Shown piece by piece: positions 3,617 to 23,394 of a stretch of 64,000 nucleotides of DNA. A model generated the notes under the pieces. It made no database searches and was not told the DNA's origin. It saw only the letters and a list, made by a program, of their open reading frames with translations. Positions within the stretch are counted from its first letter, which is position 1. Each line of letters starts with the position of its first letter. Source of the DNA: Minisyncoccota bacterium (GTDB lineage: Bacteria; Patescibacteriota; Minisyncoccia; Phycocordibacterales; UBA2100); contig JAYWCB010000013.1 of the NCBI GenBank assembly GCA_043780835.1, positions 13,512 to 77,511 of the forward strand. The letters are read 5' to 3'. The position numbers and the translations under genes were made by a program.

Positions 3617-3772
3617 GTGAATCCGAATCAACAGAAGCCGCAGTCGCAGCACGATCAGGACCAGTCGCGTCAGGGTCAGCAGAATCAAGAAAGCGGCGGA
3701 CATCAACCCGGTCGCGATGAAAAATCGGGCAACAAGCGCCAGAATCAGAAGCCCGGCTCGAAGTCGAAATAA
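3617..3772 (+). CDS. Small Gln/Lys-rich low-complexity protein (51 aa, GTG start)
   Basis: Not in the ORF track (under 60 aa). A TAGGAGA RBS sits 7 nt before a GTG start. Translation VNPNQQKPQSQHDQDQSRQGQQNQESGGHQPGRDEKSGNKRQNQKPGSKSK. A strong terminator lies at 3801-3833. Confidence 0.35.
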   Translation: MNPNQQKPQSQHDQDQSRQGQQNQESGGHQPGRDEKSGNKRQNQKPGSKSK

Positions 3773-3833: not shown

Positions 3834-4149
3834 TTAGAAGCGGCGCATTGACCGGTCATTGCCGAGGTTCACAATGGTGGAAGTGCCGCGCGGAGATCCG
3901 TGGAGAAAAGGCGCCAATGCCTAGCCCTGCCATCGGACCCAGTGAGGCGTCATGCCCTCAAATGGGATTTAAAAACAGCACGTGCAATCAATCGGGAGCA
4001 ATCTGCTCAAAGCCTCGGAAATTGGCGCGCCGCTTGTCGACGCGCCCTTTCATTGTAAAAGCCCTCCCTCAGGAGGCCTTCATCACGCTTACGATATACT
4101 GCCAAAACGGGCCTTTTGTGGCTTCAATCATGGTCTTTCGGCCTTGGGG

Positions 4150-4177
4150 TTGACTCTCATGGTTTAGCGCTTATAAT
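4150..4177 (+). promoter_or_regulatory. Sigma-70-like promoter (TTGACT, 16 nt spacer, TATAAT), candidate rRNA promoter
   Basis: Near-consensus -35 and -10 hexamers about 535 nt upstream of the 16S start. No protein gene lies between them. Confidence 0.4.
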
Positions 4178-4711
4178 GGCTCGACCATCGCTCCTGATGG
4201 CCTTTTATTTGGGGTCGGAATTGATTTTCTGATCAACGAATATGCCTGACTGCCACTCGGCACGACGGCCTTCAAACCGAAGAGGGCGGGATGTGGATGG
4301 CTGAACTTTGACATTTGAATAGACAAAGCATTTTGCATCGAATTCTGTAGCGGAATTCGGTGTGAGAAAAACAATCAATGTAAATTCACAAAGATTGGTA
4401 AGACTCGAATATCCAATAAGCCGGATGTTCGAGAAGCAATGCAACACACAAGCAAGCAAACAAAATACAACGTACTGCGAAGCCCTAGGAGAGTTTCGTA
4501 GTATATGAGGAATAGAAACAGTACTGATTACATTGATCCAAATGTAAATCAGGAAACAAAAAATCAGATTGAATCATGTTCTTCGAACATGCATAAATGT
4601 GCATTCTTTTGTTTCGTCCATCCTAAAAAAGAACTAAATCAAATTTGTAACAGAATTTCATGGCAGTGCACTCAAGGATCCGTCCACGTGCACACTATGT
4701 AATACATTCTT

Positions 4712-6169
<1,458 letters not shown>

Positions 6170-6254
6170 AAATTGGACGCTGAAACACCCGCGAGGGTGC
6201 GGTAAGCTAATAGGCGATTTGGGTATCTCGATCGAGTACCCAAGGGAAATGGCA

Positions 6255-13588: not shown

Positions 13589-13660
13589 GCGCTAGTAGTT
13601 CAGTGGTAGAACGCTGTCCTGATAAGACAGAGGTCGTAGGTCCGATTCCTACCTGGCGCA
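13589..13660 (+). tRNA. tRNA-Ile (anticodon GAU)
   Basis: Cloverleaf: 7-bp acceptor (GCGCTAG/CTGGCGC), D-arm gttc/gaac, anticodon stem ctgtc/gacag with loop ctGATaa, T-arm gtagg/cctac with loop tccgatt, discriminator A. CCA is not encoded. Confidence 0.85.
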
Positions 13661-13710
13661 CACAGCACGCAAAACACTCTCTGAGTCGCTCCTCACTACC
13701 ATCCGACAAA

Positions 13711-15138: not shown

Positions 15139-16038
15139 ATGGGATGGGAATCAGACAAAAATAAGAAGGGCTCCGGAATACCTAAGCAAGTGGAACCTGA
15201 TATACATGAACTCCGTAAAGTAATTCGGAAGCTACAGGGTGTCGAAACGGACCCGTACGCTCCTAAAAACAGCGAGACACCCCACTCATTGGAAGCGAAG
15301 GCATATCCTGATCTCGTAGCCAAATATAGTGTATTTAAGGAGGCTGTTGCCTTCGACACCGGCGTCATCTACCACCCATGTGGCTCTGCAGATATTTCAC
15401 CCAGCGAAGCCTTTCCCGGTAGTCGTGTGATATACGCAGATATGGATGCCGATGCCATGGAGGCTGTTTTAGAAAAAGGATACGAGGCCCATGTTGTCGA
15501 TGTGACATCCTTTAACCCAGGAGAAGTCGATGTATTGATCCTGTTAAATCCGCAGATCGCTCCTGATGCACCCGCGAGTTTCATAAAGCCAGGAGGGTAC
15601 ATTGTGTGCAATGATTATCACCAGACGGCAAGGCGTCTGCATGAAAAAGGCTACAAGTCGATCGGTATCGTTTTAAACACAAAGGACGGAATTACGTATG
15701 ACAGAGAAACAGAGGGATGCTGGCAAGAGGTGGATACGGATGAAGAATTGAAAAATGCACCTTTTAGTTTTAGCTTCAGTACGGTTCGTTATGATGATGC
15801 GGTTCGTATGGTACAGAAATTCTCCGGAGATAAGACGGATATTGCGAAGGAGTATAAACGGATTATCGCGGCAATTAGAAGCGGGTCGCTTGCTGGTGTG
15901 TTGGAGCTTGAAGATGGTCACGACCAAATAACGCTGACGTACAACGGCGAACACATGATGCTGCCTTGCCGCCTTCCGCGAAAAAAAGGAGTCGCTGATG
16001 ATTTATATGTTTTTCAAAAAACAATTGCCGAGAAATAG
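15139..16038 (+). CDS. Hypothetical protein (299 aa), possibly a Rossmann/methyltransferase-like fold
   Basis: ORF tightly following murA (2-nt gap). No canonical SAM motif. Family unassigned. Confidence 0.5.
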   Translation: MGWESDKNKKGSGIPKQVEPDIHELRKVIRKLQGVETDPYAPKNSETPHSLEAKAYPDLVAKYSVFKEAVAFDTGVIYHPCGSADISPSEAFPGSRVIYADMDADAMEAVLEKGYEAHVVDVTSFNPGEVDVLILLNPQIAPDAPASFIKPGGYIVCNDYHQTARRLHEKGYKSIGIVLNTKDGITYDRETEGCWQEVDTDEELKNAPFSFSFSTVRYDDAVRMVQKFSGDKTDIAKEYKRIIAAIRSGSLAGVLELEDGHDQITLTYNGEHMMLPCRLPRKKGVADDLYVFQKTIAEK

Positions 16039-16123
16039 GTCATGGGGATCGTGATGGTGGCGCGATAACACCTTTTTATCTATAGTCGGGGCAGGTTCAT
16101 TGAAACAACAGGGGATAAAACAC

Positions 16124-17494
16124 ATGTGCGGACTGTTCGGTGTTATGAACGTCAGAAAAGCAGCAGAGCTTGTCGCAATTGGACTGCATCACAATCAACA
16201 TCGCGCAGTCGATGCCGCGGGAATTGTCGCGTCCAACGGTCGCTATCTGCATCGTGAACGCGGACCGGGAATCGTTCGAAACGCGTTCGACAAGGAAATG
16301 CTCGATCGACTCCACGGCACGGCTGCTATCGGTCACATTCGCTATGCCACGTCGGGCAAGGAAGGCGAGGACAGGAGATACGACAACGTCCAACCCATCA
16401 TGGGGTACTTTCATGGTGAGGAAATTGCACTTGCGCACAACGGTAATCTGACCAACATCAGCGAGCTCGCGCGGCATGTATCGCCAAACGAACTGAGGAC
16501 GACAATGGATAGCGAGTATATCGTGCGACTCCTCGAGCGTGAAAGATCACACGACATCGAGTATGCGCTCACGAATGTGCTCTGCATGTTGAAAGGAAGC
16601 TTTGAACTCTTGATACAACTTCCGGATCGGATTATCGCAGTGCGCGATCCTCGAGGAAATCACCCACTCTCCATCGGAAAAGAGGGGGGCGGATATTTTG
16701 TGTCGTCGGAAACATGCGCCTACCCGAGTGTCGGCGCGGAGTACATTGGCGAGATCGAGCCGGGGACATTCGTCTCTTTTATGGAGAGTGGCGAAATGAA
16801 AGTCACGCGCTACGCCGAGGCGAACAAGAAACAGTGTGTATTCGAGCTCGTGTACTATGCGCATCCGGCAAGCTTCGTATTCGGACACAACGTCGGACGT
16901 TTCCGACAACAGTTGGGTCGTCGCCTGGAAGCGGAGTTTGGTGTGCCCGGGTCGGATATCGTAGTTGGTGTTCCGGACAGCTCGAACTTCATTGCGATGG
17001 GATTTGGTACATCTCTCAAATCGGGTGAGTACTATCCGGCAATCAATCGACATCACAATGTCGGACGAACCTTCATAGCTGCTTCGCAGGCACAACGCGA
17101 CGAAGAGGTTGCCAATAAGTTCACATTCTCGGCCCAAGAAGTGGCAGGGAAAGTGGTTGTATTGATCGATGATTCAATCGTGCGTGGAACGACGCTTAGG
17201 AAAATCATCACGGTAATGCGCTTGATGAAAGCGCGGGCAGTGCATGTGCGGATTGCGTCGCCGCCGTTTCGGCACCCGTGCGCGTATGGAATCAACACCA
17301 AAACGTACGAAGAGCTCATTGCGAATCAAAAAACTATCGAAGGTATTCGCGAAGAAATCGGTGCGGACTCACTCGAATACCTCTCCATCGAAAGTCTTCG
17401 GAATCTTGTAGAGAAACCGACAGAGTTCTGTTTCGCCTGCATGGACGGGAACTTCTGGGATAAACCTGAAGCGACCCCCGAGCCCTGTCTCTAA
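16124..17494 (+). CDS. purF: Amidophosphoribosyltransferase (PurF)
   Basis: MCGLFGV N-terminus (Ntn catalytic Cys2), a PRTase type I motif (VVLIDDSIVRGTT) and a C-terminal Cys cluster (CFACMDGNF) as in [4Fe-4S] PurF. Confidence 0.9.
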   Translation: MCGLFGVMNVRKAAELVAIGLHHNQHRAVDAAGIVASNGRYLHRERGPGIVRNAFDKEMLDRLHGTAAIGHIRYATSGKEGEDRRYDNVQPIMGYFHGEEIALAHNGNLTNISELARHVSPNELRTTMDSEYIVRLLERERSHDIEYALTNVLCMLKGSFELLIQLPDRIIAVRDPRGNHPLSIGKEGGGYFVSSETCAYPSVGAEYIGEIEPGTFVSFMESGEMKVTRYAEANKKQCVFELVYYAHPASFVFGHNVGRFRQQLGRRLEAEFGVPGSDIVVGVPDSSNFIAMGFGTSLKSGEYYPAINRHHNVGRTFIAASQAQRDEEVANKFTFSAQEVAGKVVVLIDDSIVRGTTLRKIITVMRLMKARAVHVRIASPPFRHPCAYGINTKTYEELIANQKTIEGIREEIGADSLEYLSIESLRNLVEKPTEFCFACMDGNFWDKPEATPEPCL

Positions 17495-17507
17495 GATCTT
17501 TTAAAAA

Positions 17508-17548
17508 AGGAATGCCCCGCGTTGCGATTGCGACGCGGGGCATTTACT
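17508..17548. terminator. Bidirectional intrinsic terminator after purF
   Basis: Palindrome aatgccccgcg..cgcggggcatt flanked by an A-run and a T-run. Two mirror-image spurious ORFs start here. Confidence 0.6.
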
Positions 17549-17624
17549 GTGGATTAATTGGTATACGCTACTTACTTCAGGTTATTATTGTGAGATTAAG
17601 CCCGGACCAAAGCCGAAGGGGAAC

Positions 17625-18245
17625 GTGCGTATCGAATGGTCGTCTCGGTTTGCGTACGCCATTGGTTTACTCGTCGCTGACGGATGTGTGCAAAAAGATG
17701 GGCGACACGTTGATCTAACCTCAGTCGATAAAGCTCAGGCTGAGTTATTTAGAAAATGTTTGGGATTAAAGACGAGTGTGAGTACGAAGCGATCGGGACA
17801 AGGGAATATCGCTTATTGTATGCAATTTAGTGATGTACTTTTCCATCAGTTTCTTATGGGAATCGGCATATTCCCAGCAAAGTCAAAGACAATAGGTGCC
17901 GTCGCGGTCCCCGAAGAGTTTTTCGTCGACTTTGTGCGCGGATATTTTGATGGTGATGGTAGTAGCTATTCCTATTACGATCCGATTTTTAAAAAGAGCT
18001 ATCGGTTTTATCTCTCGTTTACGTCTGCGAGTCCGGTGTTCATTGCTTGGTTTCGAGAGAGACTTCGGCAGTCGATAGGGGTGAAAGGGTACATCAGTCT
18101 CAATCGTAATAATCCCTACGTACAGTTGAAGTACTCGAAACGAGAGGCGGTTCGAATATGTGTCTATATGTACCACGCGAAGGACGTGCCCTGTCTTGTT
18201 CGCAAACGATTGAAAATTATGAAATCTATGCGCATAATCGCCTGA
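17625..18245 (+). CDS. LAGLIDADG-family homing endonuclease (single chain, two motifs)
   Basis: Two dodecapeptide motifs, FAYAIGLLVADGCV and FVRGYFDGDGSS, in a 206-aa ORF. GTG start with an AAGGGG RBS. It is free-standing, not inside any gene or intron visible here. Confidence 0.75.
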   Translation: MRIEWSSRFAYAIGLLVADGCVQKDGRHVDLTSVDKAQAELFRKCLGLKTSVSTKRSGQGNIAYCMQFSDVLFHQFLMGIGIFPAKSKTIGAVAVPEEFFVDFVRGYFDGDGSSYSYYDPIFKKSYRFYLSFTSASPVFIAWFRERLRQSIGVKGYISLNRNNPYVQLKYSKREAVRICVYMYHAKDVPCLVRKRLKIMKSMRIIA

Positions 18246-18246
18246 C

Positions 18247-18330
18247 GCCGCGGTGGTGAAATTGGTAGACACGCTAGCTTCAGAAGCTAGTTCTCGGAAG
18301 GGATTGGGAGTTCGAGTCTCCCTCGCGGCA
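18247..18330 (+). tRNA. tRNA-Leu (anticodon CAG)
   Basis: Acceptor GCCGCGG/TCGCGGC, D-arm gtg/cac, anticodon stem gctag/ctagc with loop ttCAGaa, long variable arm (type II tRNA), T-arm gggag ttcgagt ctccc. The gene is uninterrupted. It starts 2 nt after the endonuclease stop. Confidence 0.8.
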
Positions 18331-18427
18331 CATTAATGCAATGCATGTACATCGACGTACATTCCGTCTGGCGTGGTATTACGGACCGGATGTTCTATCT
18401 CCCTAAAAATGCACTATACTGACAATC

Positions 18428-19303
18428 ATGAGATTCGGTGAGTCCTTTGTTCCTCGAAGTAAGCCGGACGACGGTTCTTCGGATGAGCAATCTAAAGCCA
18501 CAGTTGAGGTAAAGCCAGAGTTTAAATTTGCACCACAAATCTACTTCCGCTCGGCAGACGGCAATTTCGATGTCTTGACGAAAGAAAATAGGTACCTCAC
18601 CGATGAGGACATTCTCCAGCGGGGCTTTCTAACGAACAGCGATAAAGTGAACCTTTCCTTTGCTCGGCTGCTCGATGAGCTACCAGCAGTCTTGCACGCG
18701 CCTGGACAAAATATGTCTACCGAGCGCAGAGAAATCGTCAATTCGCTTTTGAAGCGAAGACCGACGTTTGTGCCGATAGACGTAGCAAGAGTGGACTCGG
18801 AATTTTCAAATGCAGTTACGAAGTTCGAGGGTGCCCAGCTCGGTGTAATTCTTTTCCCCGAAACCAATGAGATCATGAATCAGTTTTCGGGAGTGCGATT
18901 CACAGATGGTAGAGTTGCGCGGCTTATGCGCGGGCGCGTGAGAGAAAATCTGCAAGAATTCACGTCGCAGCTTAATATGCTTTCACCACACATTGAGGCG
19001 CGTGAAATTGACCGTAAACAGTCTGCGTACGCGGTGGAGTACATGCAAGGAGCCGAACGACCCAAAACAATTTCACCGCAAGAACGCGATGACTGGCTCA
19101 ATCGCGTGAGGTCAAGCGGATTGATTTTTGACTTTGATGTGAGTACGAAAGACGAATCGCTCGATAATCTTATGCGAAAAGATGGAAAGTTGTTTTGGGT
19201 AGATGGAAATATCTTACTCGCGAAGCCAGCAGAAAACCCTGAACAACTTGAGATGTTCATTGAGGAGCAGAGAATCGTTTTAGAGAAATTCGTAAAAGAA
19301 TAA
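18428..19303 (+). CDS. Hypothetical protein (291 aa)
   Basis: Long clean ORF with no recognisable family. Confidence 0.5.
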   Translation: MRFGESFVPRSKPDDGSSDEQSKATVEVKPEFKFAPQIYFRSADGNFDVLTKENRYLTDEDILQRGFLTNSDKVNLSFARLLDELPAVLHAPGQNMSTERREIVNSLLKRRPTFVPIDVARVDSEFSNAVTKFEGAQLGVILFPETNEIMNQFSGVRFTDGRVARLMRGRVRENLQEFTSQLNMLSPHIEAREIDRKQSAYAVEYMQGAERPKTISPQERDDWLNRVRSSGLIFDFDVSTKDESLDNLMRKDGKLFWVDGNILLAKPAENPEQLEMFIEEQRIVLEKFVKE

Positions 19304-19439
19304 GTTGGTGTGTCGCGGAGCGTCGGTTCTGTTGTCCGACATCGACGGTACCGATTTACAAGAGCTTGGCATCGCGCGAAACGCAGACGGCCTAACAAAA
19401 GGCCGCACAAAGTACGGTCTTTTGTTGGCGCGGTCACGT

Positions 19440-20435
19440 TTAGATCACCTTTTTCTTTTCGCTGTCGCCTGAGTTCACTTCGTAGTTTGTATTTTGTGAC
19501 TCGAAGAAGTTCACGAGTTCGAACACATCCGTTGCGGTCGACATCCATTTTGCGGGATTCGACGCGTTGTAGTGCTTCTCCATGCCAAGCTCAACAAGAC
19601 GGCGGTCGGCCACGTACTGCACGTACTGATTTACATAGTCAGCATTCAGTCCAAGGATGCCACGCGGGAACAAGTCGGCATTGAATGTGGTTTCAAGATT
19701 TACGCCTTCGATCACGATTTGGCGGATTTCTTCGGCAAATTCTGCGGTCACGAGTTCCGGATTTTCTTCAAGAATGGAGTGAATGAGGTTGATGCCGAAC
19801 TTCAAATGCAGCGATTCGTCACGAAGCACCCAGTTGATCATCGATCCCAGATTGCGCAGTTGATTTCTTTGTCTAAACGAGAGTGCCACCATGAAGCCCG
19901 AGTAAAACCACACGCCTTCCATAACCACGTTTGTTGCAACAAGATTGCGCACAAAGTCTCGCTTACCATCGAGTGTAGACACATCAAGCTCGTCCTCAGT
20001 CATGCGCTTCATGTATTTGTTGATGAATGCTTCTTTTGCAGCCATTGACGGCACCTGCGTGTGCAGATTGAATACCTTTTCGCGATCGAGCGGGAACGTT
20101 TGCAGAACGTATTCAAACGCGACGCAGTGGTTTGCTTCCTCCCACATTTGCTTTGCGAGATAGAGATGGCATTCAGCCGACTTGAGGTGCGGATACACGC
20201 CAAGCGCGAGTGAACGGTTCACCACCAGTTCCGCTGGATTAAAAAATGCGACGAGGAATTCAACCGCATGGCGTTCGTCATCGGTCATCTTTGCCCAATC
20301 GTCGAGATCTTCTTTGAGTGCAATTTCGTGTGGGAACCACGTGTTTCGGACGGCCTGGTTGTAGAGGTCGTATGCCCACGGATATTGCGAGGGGTGCAAG
20401 TTGTAATCGTCTGGTGATGGTTTGCCTAAGAGCAT
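19440..20435 (-). CDS. nrdB: Ribonucleoside-diphosphate reductase beta subunit (class I R2)
   Basis: Ferritin-like di-iron motifs (EANHCVAFEY, EGVWFYSGFMVALSF) and the radical Tyr region. Lies downstream of nrdA in an operon. Confidence 0.85.
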   Translation of the reverse strand: MLLGKPSPDDYNLHPSQYPWAYDLYNQAVRNTWFPHEIALKEDLDDWAKMTDDERHAVEFLVAFFNPAELVVNRSLALGVYPHLKSAECHLYLAKQMWEEANHCVAFEYVLQTFPLDREKVFNLHTQVPSMAAKEAFINKYMKRMTEDELDVSTLDGKRDFVRNLVATNVVMEGVWFYSGFMVALSFRQRNQLRNLGSMINWVLRDESLHLKFGINLIHSILEENPELVTAEFAEEIRQIVIEGVNLETTFNADLFPRGILGLNADYVNQYVQYVADRRLVELGMEKHYNASNPAKWMSTATDVFELVNFFESQNTNYEVNSGDSEKKKVI

Positions 20436-20502: not shown

Positions 20503-23394
20503 CTATTGACACGCGATGCAAACGTTCGGACTATCTGCACCGTCATCGGGCATATCGTATTCCTGCTTTGCAGGAGCTGGCGCCTGTGCGGCCGGTGCAT
20601 GAGACGCGGTTGCTACTGGTATGGAAGCGGGAGTTTCGGCAACTGATTTAAGCGTTGCGAATCCCATCGGAGTATTCTGATCGCTTATTGATGCACCTGT
20701 GGATGCGCTTGGTACCACTGATGCAACAGACGAGAATCCTCCCCTGGAGGCCACAGCCGGTGCGGGAGCGGTCTCTTGGGTCGCCTGGGCATCTATAGAT
20801 GCTATCGAGCTCTCGGCTGCGTCTGTAGGCAGGTGGGCGGCTGCGGCACTTACCGCTGCAAAGCCCCGAGCCGGTTGCGCAGGAACCGGTACGGGCGTGT
20901 GGGTTGGCATTTGAACAGGAGTGTCGAATGTGATCGGCGATGGTGACATATCGAGCGGTGAGAGTGTTGCATCTGACGGGATACCCGCAGCAGCGAGCTT
21001 GATCGATCCGAATCCGCGCTTGCCCGTCATTTCAGATTTGTTCACATTGGTCGTCGATTGTTCTGCAGTATGACGAGGCTTCATGTGCAAGTAGTAGGTC
21101 GTCTTCAAACCCTTTTTCCATGCAGTCATATAGACCTGTTTCATATCAACCATGTCGCGACTATCGAGATACATGTTGCGCGAGAGGGCCTGGTCGACCC
21201 ATTTTTGCGCACGCGCAGCAACCTCGATGTATGCGTACGGATTGGTAGTAAACGCGGTTTTGTAGATTTCTTTGAAGTATGCGGGAAGGCCTTCGATGTT
21301 TGAGATGTCGCCCTGCGCTTCGATAATCTTCTCTTTCATCTCATCCCAGAGACCCATGTTCTTGAGATCCTTTACGAGATTGTGGTTGAGGTCGAGGTAC
21401 TTTCCGGAAATCTTGTTGCGTGCAAAGACCTGTGCAAAGCGGGGATCGATGCCCGGCGTGGTGCCGGCAACGAGTCCGATGTTTGCATTTGGTGCAACTG
21501 CCATGAGTGTTGCGTTGCGCATGCCAAGCTTCACGCGGGCGCGAAGCTTGTCCCAATCCAATCGCTTTTGCTTGGTAATTTTTGTGAGATCGGTCGTCAT
21601 GCCGCGATCTTTTTCCATACGCTCAATAGTATCGAGCGGCACCATGCCCTCGGACCATCCGGAACCGGGGAAATTCTTATAGCTGCCGCGCTCTTGCGCC
21701 AAATTCGCGCTTTCATCAATTGCCATGTAACTGATGAATTCAAATACACGATCCGCAAAATCCCAGGCATGCGGACTCTCGTAGCTCATCGAGAGTTGTT
21801 CAAGCGCATCGGAGAATCCCATAACGCCAAGTCCGATCGCACGGTTTTCGTTGTCGGAGCGCGCAGCCTCTTCGATGGGAAGTACATTGATGTCGATGAG
21901 GTTGTCGAGCTGACGCACTGCGGTACGGACCGTGTCTTCGAGCTTCGCCCAATTGATCTGCTTACCCTCAATATGTCCCGCTATGTTGAGCGACGCGAGA
22001 TTGCAGACTGCAATGTTGTTGCGATCCTGAGGAAGCGTGATTTCCGTGCAGAGATTCGACATGTGGATGGTGCCGGTGTTGTTGTTGAGCGCGCGCAGGT
22101 TGATCGGATCTTTCCACGTGAGCCACGGGTGAGAGGTGGACTGGAGGGCAGTCAAAATATGCTGGAACTGTTCCGTTGCAGGCACTTTCTTGAACATGCG
22201 TAGTTTGCCGGCCTTTGCCATTTCCACGTACTCTCCGTAGCGCTTTGAGAACGCGGAACCGTAGAGCTCGTTCAGATCCATGGTTTCTTTCGGATCGAAC
22301 ATGTACCAGTCGTCGCCCGATTCCACACGCTTCATAAATTCATCGGAGATGAATACGGCGGTGTTTGCCGTGCGCATACGCAGATAGTCGTCGCCCGCAT
22401 TGTGCTTCCAGTCAATAAACTCGGGGAAATCGTAGTGCCAGTTCTCCATGTAGAAGCAGAGTGCACCGAGCTTCTTGCCGCCGCGCTGCACCGCGCGAAT
22501 TGCGGTGTCCATGATTTTTGCAAACGGTGTCGGACCGCTCGACACTGTGTTCGAAGATTTGAGAGGCGATCCTGTTGCACGGAGCTTGGTGATTGAAACA
22601 CCGATACCGCCGGATCCTTTTGAGATTTTCAGCACGTCGGCAACCGATTTTGCGATGTGGTCCATGTCGTCGTGCACTTCGAGTAGGAAGCAGTTCGAGA
22701 GTGACGGTCGGGATGTGCCTGCACCGAGATTCGTGGAGCCACCTGCAAGATAGAGCAGCTGCGACATCTTTTCGTAGAACTTAATTGCAGAGACGGTAGG
22801 ATTCTTTTCGTTGTAGGAGAGTCCCATCGCCACACGCATAAAGAAATACTGCGGCGTCTCGATGCGCTTTTGGTTTTCGTCGCGCATCGAGTATCGGTCG
22901 AGGAGGGAAGAAAGTCCCGCGTAATTCAAGAGCTCATCGCGTTCCATCTTGAGTGTGGCACCGAGCGTTTCAAGGTCAAACATGGATACCATCCTCTCTT
23001 CGAGGAGTCCTGCAGTGACGTACTTTTGTATATGGAGCGGAAACTGCGTAGCATGCTTTGCGGCAAGTTCAGTCTTATCATCGTTGTATTCTCCCACGAC
23101 GCGGCGATAGACGGTTTTGAGGAGGAGTCGTACGGCAACTTTGTCGTACTCGATGTCTTCTTTGATGTTTTGAACGGCGGCGTTGATCGTGGCCAAGTCC
23201 ATTTCATCGGTGGTGATGCCATCGTAAAGCGTGAGACGTGTTTCGGTCGCGATTTGCGTGACCATCGAAATCGGATCCGAGAGGCCTTCGGCCGCTCGTT
23301 CGATTGAACGATTGATCCTATCTGCGTTGAAAAGTTCTTTCTGTCCGTCGCGTTTTGTAATTGAGATGTTTGTCATATGGCTTGCCGCTACCAT
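20503..23394 (-). CDS. nrdA: Ribonucleoside-diphosphate reductase alpha subunit (class I) with an N-terminal ATP-cone and an extended low-complexity C-terminal linker
   Basis: ATP-cone (ITKRDGQKELFNADRINRSIERA), catalytic core motifs (NLCTEI, SNLCTE region, GLGVMGF), and a C-terminal CIACQ redox pair preceded by about 180 aa rich in A/P/S/T. The start may be the Met at 23376. Confidence 0.9.
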   Translation of the reverse strand: MVAASHMTNISITKRDGQKELFNADRINRSIERAAEGLSDPISMVTQIATETRLTLYDGITTDEMDLATINAAVQNIKEDIEYDKVAVRLLLKTVYRRVVGEYNDDKTELAAKHATQFPLHIQKYVTAGLLEERMVSMFDLETLGATLKMERDELLNYAGLSSLLDRYSMRDENQKRIETPQYFFMRVAMGLSYNEKNPTVSAIKFYEKMSQLLYLAGGSTNLGAGTSRPSLSNCFLLEVHDDMDHIAKSVADVLKISKGSGGIGVSITKLRATGSPLKSSNTVSSGPTPFAKIMDTAIRAVQRGGKKLGALCFYMENWHYDFPEFIDWKHNAGDDYLRMRTANTAVFISDEFMKRVESGDDWYMFDPKETMDLNELYGSAFSKRYGEYVEMAKAGKLRMFKKVPATEQFQHILTALQSTSHPWLTWKDPINLRALNNNTGTIHMSNLCTEITLPQDRNNIAVCNLASLNIAGHIEGKQINWAKLEDTVRTAVRQLDNLIDINVLPIEEAARSDNENRAIGLGVMGFSDALEQLSMSYESPHAWDFADRVFEFISYMAIDESANLAQERGSYKNFPGSGWSEGMVPLDTIERMEKDRGMTTDLTKITKQKRLDWDKLRARVKLGMRNATLMAVAPNANIGLVAGTTPGIDPRFAQVFARNKISGKYLDLNHNLVKDLKNMGLWDEMKEKIIEAQGDISNIEGLPAYFKEIYKTAFTTNPYAYIEVAARAQKWVDQALSRNMYLDSRDMVDMKQVYMTAWKKGLKTTYYLHMKPRHTAEQSTTNVNKSEMTGKRGFGSIKLAAAGIPSDATLSPLDMSPSPITFDTPVQMPTHTPVPVPAQPARGFAAVSAAAAHLPTDAAESSIASIDAQATQETAPAPAVASRGGFSSVASVVPSASTGASISDQNTPMGFATLKSVAETPASIPVATASHAPAAQAPAPAKQEYDMPDDGADSPNVCIACQ

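Follow-up and report, generated by a model that had tools for sequence, protein, structure and literature searches.

We analyzed a 64,000-nucleotide (nt) stretch of the genome of a Minisyncoccota bacterium (GCA_043780835.1, contig JAYWCB010000013.1; hereafter the window), in which a gene for a LAGLIDADG homing endonuclease lies directly 5' of an intact tRNA-Leu(CAG) gene (Table 1). The two genes probably belong to a mobile cassette, in which a free-standing, tRNA-specialised endonuclease split the resident tRNA gene behind its nt 36 and provides both a promoter and a substitute for the displaced 5' part. Read 5' to 3', the cassette would comprise a degenerate copy of the 5' half of tRNA-Leu(CAG) (hereafter the pseudo-half), a start region of the leaderless type with a -10-like box, the open reading frame (ORF) of the endonuclease, a tRNA promoter within the last 12 codons of the ORF, and the complete tRNA-Leu(CAG).

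We propose that the enzyme would cut both strands of tRNA-Leu(CAG) genes that lack the endonuclease, probably within the anticodon loop or close to it, and that repair from an occupied allele would copy the ORF, the replacement promoter and the tRNA 5' part into the broken gene. The broken gene's own nt 1-36 would stay upstream as the scar that we call the pseudo-half. The host would retain a working tRNA, so that the insertion would be nearly neutral without an intron or an intein. Once formed, the pseudo-half would travel with the cassette, as its shared derived substitutions indicate.

Pseudo-half and endonuclease-free alleles

Syntenic loci of relatives place the insertion point inside the tRNA gene. 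The occupied loci L107/L144, L001 and L004 and the endonuclease-free loci L096, L118 and L149 share the same upstream gene (71-80% nucleotide identity). At the endonuclease-free loci, the tRNA begins 17-30 nt after the stop codon of this gene; at the occupied loci, the pseudo-half is found in that place, followed by a cassette of ~750 nt and a complete tRNA. When these sequences were aligned using MAFFT, the tRNA of the empty sites was aligned to the pseudo-half of the occupied loci. Because a real tRNA holds this position in the syntenic endonuclease-free genomes, we interpret the pseudo-half as the original 5' half of the resident tRNA, still in situ; on this reading, the insertion begins after nt 36 and supplies the new 5' part. 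A preliminary description of this stretch, made from the sequence alone, had taken the ORF for a possible relic of an intron or homing event at the tRNA locus and had proposed a comparison with relatives that lack the ORF. This comparison supports one part of that suggestion, namely the putative insertion scar at the tRNA; the intron part was not supported, as described below. The pseudo-half, the tRNA promoter inside the ORF and the pattern shared across the family go beyond that description.

The local alignment score of the window's pseudo-half equaled the maximum of 2058 genomic control windows (p about 0.001). A comparison with shuffled tRNA gave only weak scores for single loci (z about 2-3) and is superseded by these control windows together with the consistent position of the element. 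Further, the same element was present 12-33 nt 5' of the start codon in 18 of the 24 loci of the Leu(CAG) clade, in most of them with a score above all controls, and in these 18 loci it always ended at the anticodon. Upstream copies were also found at loci linked to other tRNAs. At the Leu(GAG)-linked loci L015 and L016 (p 0.005 for the latter), the copy ends with ..CCTTGAGG, includes the GAG anticodon and is nearly identical to the 5' half of a real tRNA-Leu(GAG). At the tRNA-Asp locus L072, the copy ends with ..CCTGT, that is, at the insertion site of the intron described below. The upstream match at L077 (p 0.002) is to a stretch resembling a tRNA 3' arm and is not read as a pseudo-half.

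Loci L001 (~2903-2920), L004 and L107/L144 also have tgggtgcggggagactcg in common, which lies between the upstream gene, purN-like in these loci, and the pseudo-half. Its reverse complement, CGAGTCTCCCCGCACCCA, resembles the T-arm and acceptor 3' end of a tRNA, and the element could be an inverted tRNA fragment at the left edge of the cassette.

A metagenome scan for nt 7-43 of tRNA-Leu(CAG) yielded 80 loci. The endonuclease gene was found in 10 of these (about 12%), and one copy, at L117, was decayed, with only its N-terminal half recognisable. Six loci, representing four distinct sequences (L085/L130, L094, L109 and L127/L142), lacked the gene but retained its last 40-55 nt directly before the tRNA. 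The remaining loci had unrelated native upstream sequence with -10 boxes of their own that resemble TGGTATAAT. Further, the ORF at L009 was truncated. The same site is therefore polymorphic for presence and absence of the gene and holds decayed and deleted copies, as is characteristic of homing elements. Between an endonuclease-free tRNA-Leu(CAG) and a tRNA-Leu(TAG), locus L021 has a pseudo-tRNA-Leu that lacks the anticodon arm (1277-1374; GCCCAGATGGCGGAATTGGTATACGCG.. followed by ..TTCCCGCAAGGGATTGGATG), which may be the footprint of an earlier break or repair at a Leu tRNA.

Endonuclease gene and presumptive promoters

The preliminary description had recognised a LAGLIDADG ORF with two motifs, and this assignment is confirmed: the ORF called from GTG (17625-18245) matched Pfam LAGLIDADG_3 (PF14528) in two stretches, with an E value of 3.4e-10 and a score of 40.5 bits (cutoff 22.5). 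Neither motif is degenerate. Each retains its acidic residue, in GLLVADG (D29/G30) and GYFDGDG (D119-G122; D121; numbering of the 216-residue protein), and both aspartates are invariant among the 18-20 homologues aligned. Weak matches to I-CreI and I-Tsp061I were obtained at the sequence level. An AlphaFold2 model built on 18 homologues had a predicted local distance difference test (pLDDT) score of 88.5 and a predicted template modelling (pTM) score of 0.87, and the order of its secondary structures fits a pseudo-symmetric fold with two alpha-beta-beta-alpha-beta-beta-alpha units. The best Foldseek matches in the PDB were I-Tsp061I (E 8e-10), an intein endonuclease domain, I-SceI and I-DmoI; I-AniI was matched as well. 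The motifs, the profile match and this confident model indicate a monomeric, two-domain LAGLIDADG homing endonuclease, for which DNA cleavage is predicted.

Homologues begin with MKRGPKPKG.., and an ATT at 17595 opens the corresponding in-frame stretch of the window, IKPGPKPKGN; the coding region therefore most likely starts at this ATT and spans 216 amino acids, and the GTG at 17625 is only the pick of a mechanical ORF caller. All aligned homologues have ATG or GTG where the window has ATT. Given this start codon, the window copy would either still be expressed at a low level or be just entering decay.

The ATT also gives rise to an alternative that we regard as unlikely: that the family is mobile, but the window gene lost its function with its start codon and is kept only for the tRNA promoter in its 3' end. 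Deletion derivatives that keep just this promoter piece, the part needed by the host, are consistent with such a dead copy. However, the ORF is full length, has no frameshift or internal stop codon and carries every residue that is invariant or nearly invariant in the family. Further, the conserved KPGPKPKGN is still encoded by the ten codons that separate ATT from the following GTG, a sign that they are translated, and ATT is an allowed initiator in bacteria.

When the region 17400-18500 was scanned for promoter consensus, the only promoter-like site found was the one in the last codons of the ORF (10 of 12 matches), whose -10 box ends 8 nt ahead of nt +1 of the tRNA. Of the 14 clade loci displayed, 7 had the same TTGAAR-17-CATAAT, and the others had a less strict -10-like element in its place. 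The piece of 40-55 nt that carries this site is the only part of the ORF that survives 5' of the tRNA in the endonuclease-deleted loci L085, L094, L109 and L127, which makes sense if the tRNA depends on it. We therefore regard the site as the presumptive promoter of the tRNA, its use being predicted from position and conservation.

The same scan found nothing upstream of the ORF and did not call the TATTAT box there, which was recognised in an alignment of the upstream regions of 15 loci. Homologues have TATACT or TATAAT at the same spacing before the start codon and no Shine-Dalgarno sequence. A -10-like box 6 nt from the start codon without a Shine-Dalgarno sequence suggests that the endonuclease mRNA is leaderless. 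In the alignment of the 15 upstream regions, no -35 element with a consistent spacing to the conserved core was found for the endonuclease gene.

tRNA linkage and introns in the endonuclease family

A protein search returned several hundred relatives, mostly from Patescibacteria, or candidate phyla radiation (CPR) bacteria, and the best 120 were 57-70% identical to the window protein. At least 492 loci of the family are present among species-representative genomes; most belong to Patescibacteria/CPR, and members also occur in Omnitrophota and Planctomycetia. We mapped ORFs and tRNAs in 80 loci from species-representative genomes, which make 81 with the window. In 77 of the 81 loci, a tRNA on the same strand abuts the 3' end of the ORF, starting about -50 to +80 nt from the ORF stop. 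In contrast, only 2 of 80 viral LAGLIDADG_3 loci (31% identity or less) had any tRNA within 1.5 kb. Thus, the adjacency of ORF and tRNA is far above chance.

Many homologues in databases have a C-terminal tail ..RRGGEIGKHASFRS, which results from translating tRNA-Leu nt 1-44; the same tRNA therefore lies at the same junction in those genomes. ORF callers run many genes of the family 15 codons into the tRNA and also mis-start the window gene. In a neighbor-joining tree, the protein clades coincided with the identity of the adjoining tRNA (Leu CAG, GAG, TAG and TAA, Phe GAA, Cys GCA, and Asp GTC), as expected from evolving specificity for a DNA target. The Leu(CAG) clade was monophyletic, with 15 loci including the window, and the Asp(GTC) clade was large. 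Across the Leu(CAG) clade, the junction between ORF and tRNA and the embedded promoter were conserved.

Some members depart from this arrangement. L003 is the only locus of the Leu(CAG) clade in which the tRNA-Leu after the ORF lies on the opposite strand (1518-1602); its ORF tail ..INALKKKKLSAAGET, like that of P0021, reads into the inverted tRNA. L068 and L069, from uncultured Bacilli, have no adjacent tRNA. A group I intron (3985-4221, 85 bits) lies ~400 nt downstream in L068, apparently in a protein-coding context, and both loci may be conventional intron-associated members of the wider family. Carriage by phages was also considered and rejected: the relatives on viral contigs do not exceed 31% identity and are not tRNA-linked. 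The sole tRNA-adjacent case among the 80 viral loci is L265, a giant viral contig of 427 kb, in which a distant LAGLIDADG_3 relative (1501-2124) is followed 63 nt later by a tRNA-Trp on the same strand (2187-2258).

In 12 loci, the ORF is directly followed by a group I intron detected by Rfam, and the tRNA exons were resolved in 11 of these (L022, L045, L046, L049, L052, L053, L059, L070, L072, L073 and L080; those of L079 were not resolved). The exons were read from the sequence with the help of the ARAGORN intron option, since the default mode of ARAGORN missed the intron-split tRNAs. In all 11 loci, the intron splits the anticodon loop of the adjacent tRNA, which is tRNA-Asp(GTC) in ten and tRNA-Phe in one (L022), and the endonuclease gene lies outside the intron, 5' of the 5' exon. 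The introns next to the family ORFs carry no ORF of their own. The 5' exon of tRNA-Asp ends with ..CCTGT, the intron ends with G and the 3' exon starts with CACGCGG, which places the intron between nt 35 and 36. Within the Asp clade, intron-bearing and intron-free loci were interleaved in the tree. Because the introns of these relatives split the tRNA at the anticodon loop beside a free-standing ORF, the arrangement points to this loop as the probable target region of the family. Between the ORF and the split tRNA-Asp, L045 (~3622-3670) and L053 (~3640-3729) contain incomplete repeats of the 5' end of tRNA-Asp (such as GGCCGTAGCTCAG.. and GCGGTCGTAAGCAGC..), which shows repeated rearrangement at the 5' end of the tRNA.

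The pseudo-half of the window ends exactly after the anticodon, where related tRNA-Asp loci have group I introns, and such introns do adjoin some members of the family. Both facts would also fit an intron relic, in which the ORF once lay in a group I intron of the tRNA-Leu(CAG) anticodon loop, the pseudo-half is the old 5' exon, and an intact tRNA copy later took the place of ribozyme and 3' exon. We consider this very unlikely, because the ORF was located upstream of the 5' exon, and not in the intron, in all 11 of the 12 intron-bearing relatives that were resolved. Further, the search for group I intron elements around the ORF that the preliminary description had proposed revealed no such intron or ribozyme remnant in 16000-20000 even at E<=10, and none across the whole window at the gathering score. 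The gene is thus free-standing, as had been claimed: it is surrounded by neither an intron nor an intein and lies beside a conserved gene that exists endonuclease-free elsewhere, and this tRNA is uninterrupted according to ARAGORN and Rfam. The gap between the ORF and the tRNA, previously given as 2 nt, is 1 nt. Finally, a conserved ORF-tRNA junction with an embedded promoter fits a cassette better than a secondary patch.

It is likewise highly improbable that, as the preliminary description had also suggested, the endonuclease has been domesticated, that is, kept by the host as a regulator or processing factor of the adjoining tRNA gene in the manner of WhiA: its conservation (55-71% identity and 59 invariant columns among the aligned homologues), its tight, conserved linkage to one tRNA with an ORF that overlaps the tRNA promoter, the conserved non-coding tRNA-like motif upstream, which could be an operator, and a Foldseek match to the two-domain LAGLIDADG fold of WhiA (PDB 3hyi, E 5e-8) would suit such a role, but the gene occupies only about 12% of the same-tRNA loci, decayed, truncated and deleted copies exist, and its lineages switch among tRNA species and bacterial phyla. 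WhiA has lost the catalytic acidic residues, has a C-terminal helix-turn-helix domain and is vertically conserved; none of this applies to the window protein, in which the catalytic aspartates are kept within only 216 amino acids without an additional helix-turn-helix domain and whose distribution is sporadic.

In intronless homing, the endonuclease-free allele is cut and the allele that carries the enzyme gene is immune. In the anticodon loop of the window tRNA-Leu(CAG) (CTTCAGAAG, about 18278-18286), position 37 is A, whereas G is usual there (the m1G37 site) in tRNA-Leu that reads CUN codons. A37 was found in 5 of 9 occupied alleles versus 2 of 49 naive alleles (Fisher p 5e-4, in a test that ignores shared ancestry). 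It was also found in 8 of the 15 occupied GTDB loci, including the window, which gives 13 of 24 occupied alleles in total. The Leu(CAG) clade may therefore achieve self-immunity through target polymorphism, with A37 in place of G37 as a candidate; where the tRNA is Asp or Phe, protection of the target could come from the intron.

Several observations weigh against the proposed cassette. About half of the occupied alleles keep G37, and some of them, for example L105, have a tRNA that is identical in nt 1-44 to those of endonuclease-free alleles (L103 and L104); a target wholly within nt 1-44 would therefore not be protected by sequence there. With its ATT start, the window copy may be poorly expressed or silent. 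No clean empty site of the window's own species was found using the downstream gene, which had only six homologues, and the syntenic pairs from relatives were used in its place. The only close orthologue of this gene (L081, 71% identity) has another upstream neighbor, and of tRNA-Leu just a 3' fragment (..GGGTTAAAGTCTCTCCCGCGGCACCA, 1180-1236) precedes it; this locus appears to be rearranged with a breakpoint inside the tRNA; another homologue, L082, has no tRNA. Beyond the Leu(CAG) clade, most loci have no recognisable pseudo-half upstream, and among the 62 loci compared only L016 (with L015) and L072 were convincing. The scar is thus not a universal feature of the family.

The last of these points concerns the pseudo-half itself, which is strongly conserved in its derived form GGTATACGCTA, unlike a neutral scar. 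In 18 of 21 unique clade loci, its 16-nt core, AAATTGGTATACGCTA, shows 87% identity, versus 39% at the codon third positions of the adjoining ORF, and differs from the neighboring functional tRNA (TATACGC versus TAGACAC). Because a neutral scar would not stay conserved, the pseudo-half must have gained a function, and on this comparison we read it as a scar that has since been brought under constraint. Candidate functions are a homology arm, an operator or a promoter. More tentatively, the mobile cassette might represent an undescribed mode of homing for structural-RNA genes, which needs neither intron nor intein because a replacement promoter and 5' part of the target tRNA are carried along, and in which the displaced 5' half has been selected as a cis element, either as a left homology arm, through which the cassette could enter any genome with that tRNA, or as the operator or promoter of the endonuclease; we regard this extension as possible rather than likely.

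Setting of the cassette and comparison with known systems

The features of the cassette region are listed in Table 1. The gene next downstream of the tRNA starts at 18428, and the genes that flank the cassette are housekeeping genes (murA-like, purF-like and ribonucleotide reductase), so that the cassette is not part of a prophage or island. The hairpin at the left limit surfaced in Rfam only as a hairpin-shaped match below threshold, and the terminator scan did not call it (its T-run is weak).

Table 1. Features in and around the endonuclease cassette (positions in the window).
Feature	Position	Strand	Description
purF-like gene	stop 17492-17494		upstream neighbor; glutamine amidotransferase domains, N-terminal MCGLFG motif
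G+C-rich perfect hairpin	~17508..17547	+	terminator-like; left limit of the cassette region; sequence reading
Pseudo-5' half of tRNA-Leu(CAG), gtggattaattggtatacgctacttacttcag	17549..17580	+	~tRNA nt 7-37; degenerate; ends immediately after anticodon CAG
-10-like box TATTAT	17583..17588	+	6 nt ahead of the start codon position; from 15 aligned upstream regions
LAGLIDADG homing endonuclease gene	17595..18245	+	216 aa from ATT 17595, 206 aa from GTG 17625; stop TGA 18243-18245
LAGLIDADG motif 1 (AYAIGLLVADG)	17652..17684	+	D29 presumptive catalytic residue; columns invariant in homologue alignments
LAGLIDADG motif 2 (DFVRGYFDGDG)	17928..17960	+	D121 presumptive catalytic residue; columns invariant in homologue alignments
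Sigma-70-like promoter TTGAAA-17-CATAAT	18210..18238	+	within the last 12 ORF codons (..LKIMKSMRII..); presumptive tRNA promoter
tRNA-Leu(CAG)	18247-18331	+	intact; long variable arm; A at position 37; ARAGORN; Rfam 54.8 bits

In the whole window, Rfam detected one 16S rRNA gene and two tRNAs as the only RNA genes. The 16S rRNA gene (4711-6171, 1371 bits) is complete and has no insertion, and the second tRNA, tRNA-Ile(GAT), is located at 13589-13661, 7.4 kb downstream of it. There is no 23S gene anywhere in the 64-kb window, and the rRNA genes of this genome therefore appear to be unlinked. The large subunit of ribonucleotide reductase (963 amino acids) has a C-terminal extension of ~190 amino acids (20503-21080, - strand), which lies past the Pfam barrel domain (ending at residue 769), is rich in Ala, Pro, Ser and Thr, and terminates with ..CIACQ.

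The usual view is that essential genes tolerate homing endonucleases only with the help of an intron or intein. The family described here suggests a third solution for RNA genes, which is to carry a spare promoter and 5' portion of the gene that is broken. Further, because the same protein family adjoins tRNAs with and without ORF-less group I introns, it offers natural intermediates between free-standing and intron-associated endonuclease genes and bears directly on the assembly of mobile introns. The element may exert pressure on position 37 of the tRNA. Should the undescribed mode of homing considered above be real, many CPR lineages would have an essential tRNA whose sequence, and possibly also modification, is being reshaped by a selfish element. 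With about 216 amino acids, the enzymes are compact candidate meganucleases with conserved natural targets.

The LAGLIDADG superfamily, free-standing endonuclease genes, intronless homing and collaborative homing are already known. Apparently undescribed is their combination in a LAGLIDADG family that specialises in bacterial tRNA genes, with placement 5' of the tRNA beside a pseudo-half, a tRNA promoter embedded in the ORF, and optional ORF-less introns. We found no description of tRNA-flanking LAGLIDADG genes in CPR bacteria in the searchable full-text literature, which leaves out most subscription journals, so that an earlier description is possible.

LAGLIDADG genes have been described in insertions and introns of rRNA genes in CPR bacteria (PMC11270868; PMC7143001; PMC8172020), and PMC11270868 makes no mention of tRNA. 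These genes share with the window family the host group, the enzyme superfamily and the choice of highly conserved RNA genes as targets, but are located inside the 16S or 23S insertions. The known PD-(D/E)XK enzyme of a tRNA intron likewise has the tRNA anticodon loop as its homing site and is sporadically distributed among relatives; its ORF, however, lies inside the intron, whereas that of the window family lies outside it, upstream of the tRNA.

T4 SegB reportedly lies in a phage tRNA gene cluster and promotes the inheritance of this cluster. Intronless homing by free-standing endonucleases is known from T-even phages, for example for the Seg and Mob proteins (PMC3984707). As in the window, the gene lies outside introns and inteins, beside a conserved gene that is the presumed target; as proposed for the window family, the break is repaired with co-conversion of flanking markers, and immunity is due to target polymorphism. 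However, the Seg and Mob proteins are GIY-YIG or HNH enzymes of phage genomes, do not split the target gene and carry no replacement part, whereas the window cassette encodes a LAGLIDADG enzyme, resides in a cellular (CPR) chromosome, and combines a pseudo-half scar with an ORF that contains a presumptive promoter.

In collaborative (trans) homing in phages, a free-standing endonuclease targets the insertion site of a neighboring ORF-less intron (PMC3984707; PMC2790892). F-CphI and the cyanophage psbA intron form such a pair, as does mobE with I-TevIII (Zeng et al. 2009 as cited in PMC3984707; PMC2790892; PMC6083498). Exactly this layout was found in 11 relatives, mostly at tRNA-Asp. It is absent from the window, in which the tRNA has no intron, and the family further differs in its bacterial rather than phage hosts, its probable target in the tRNA anticodon loop and its enzyme family.

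A parallel to the replacement of a gene part comes from fungal mitochondria. There, free-standing LAGLIDADG genes insert at the end of a host gene and bring with them a duplicate of the segment that they displace. As proposed for the window cassette, the replacement copy keeps the host gene functional and a decaying duplicate is left behind. The fungal elements, however, affect the 3' ends of protein-coding genes and form in-frame fusions, whereas the window cassette would replace the 5' part of a tRNA together with its promoter.

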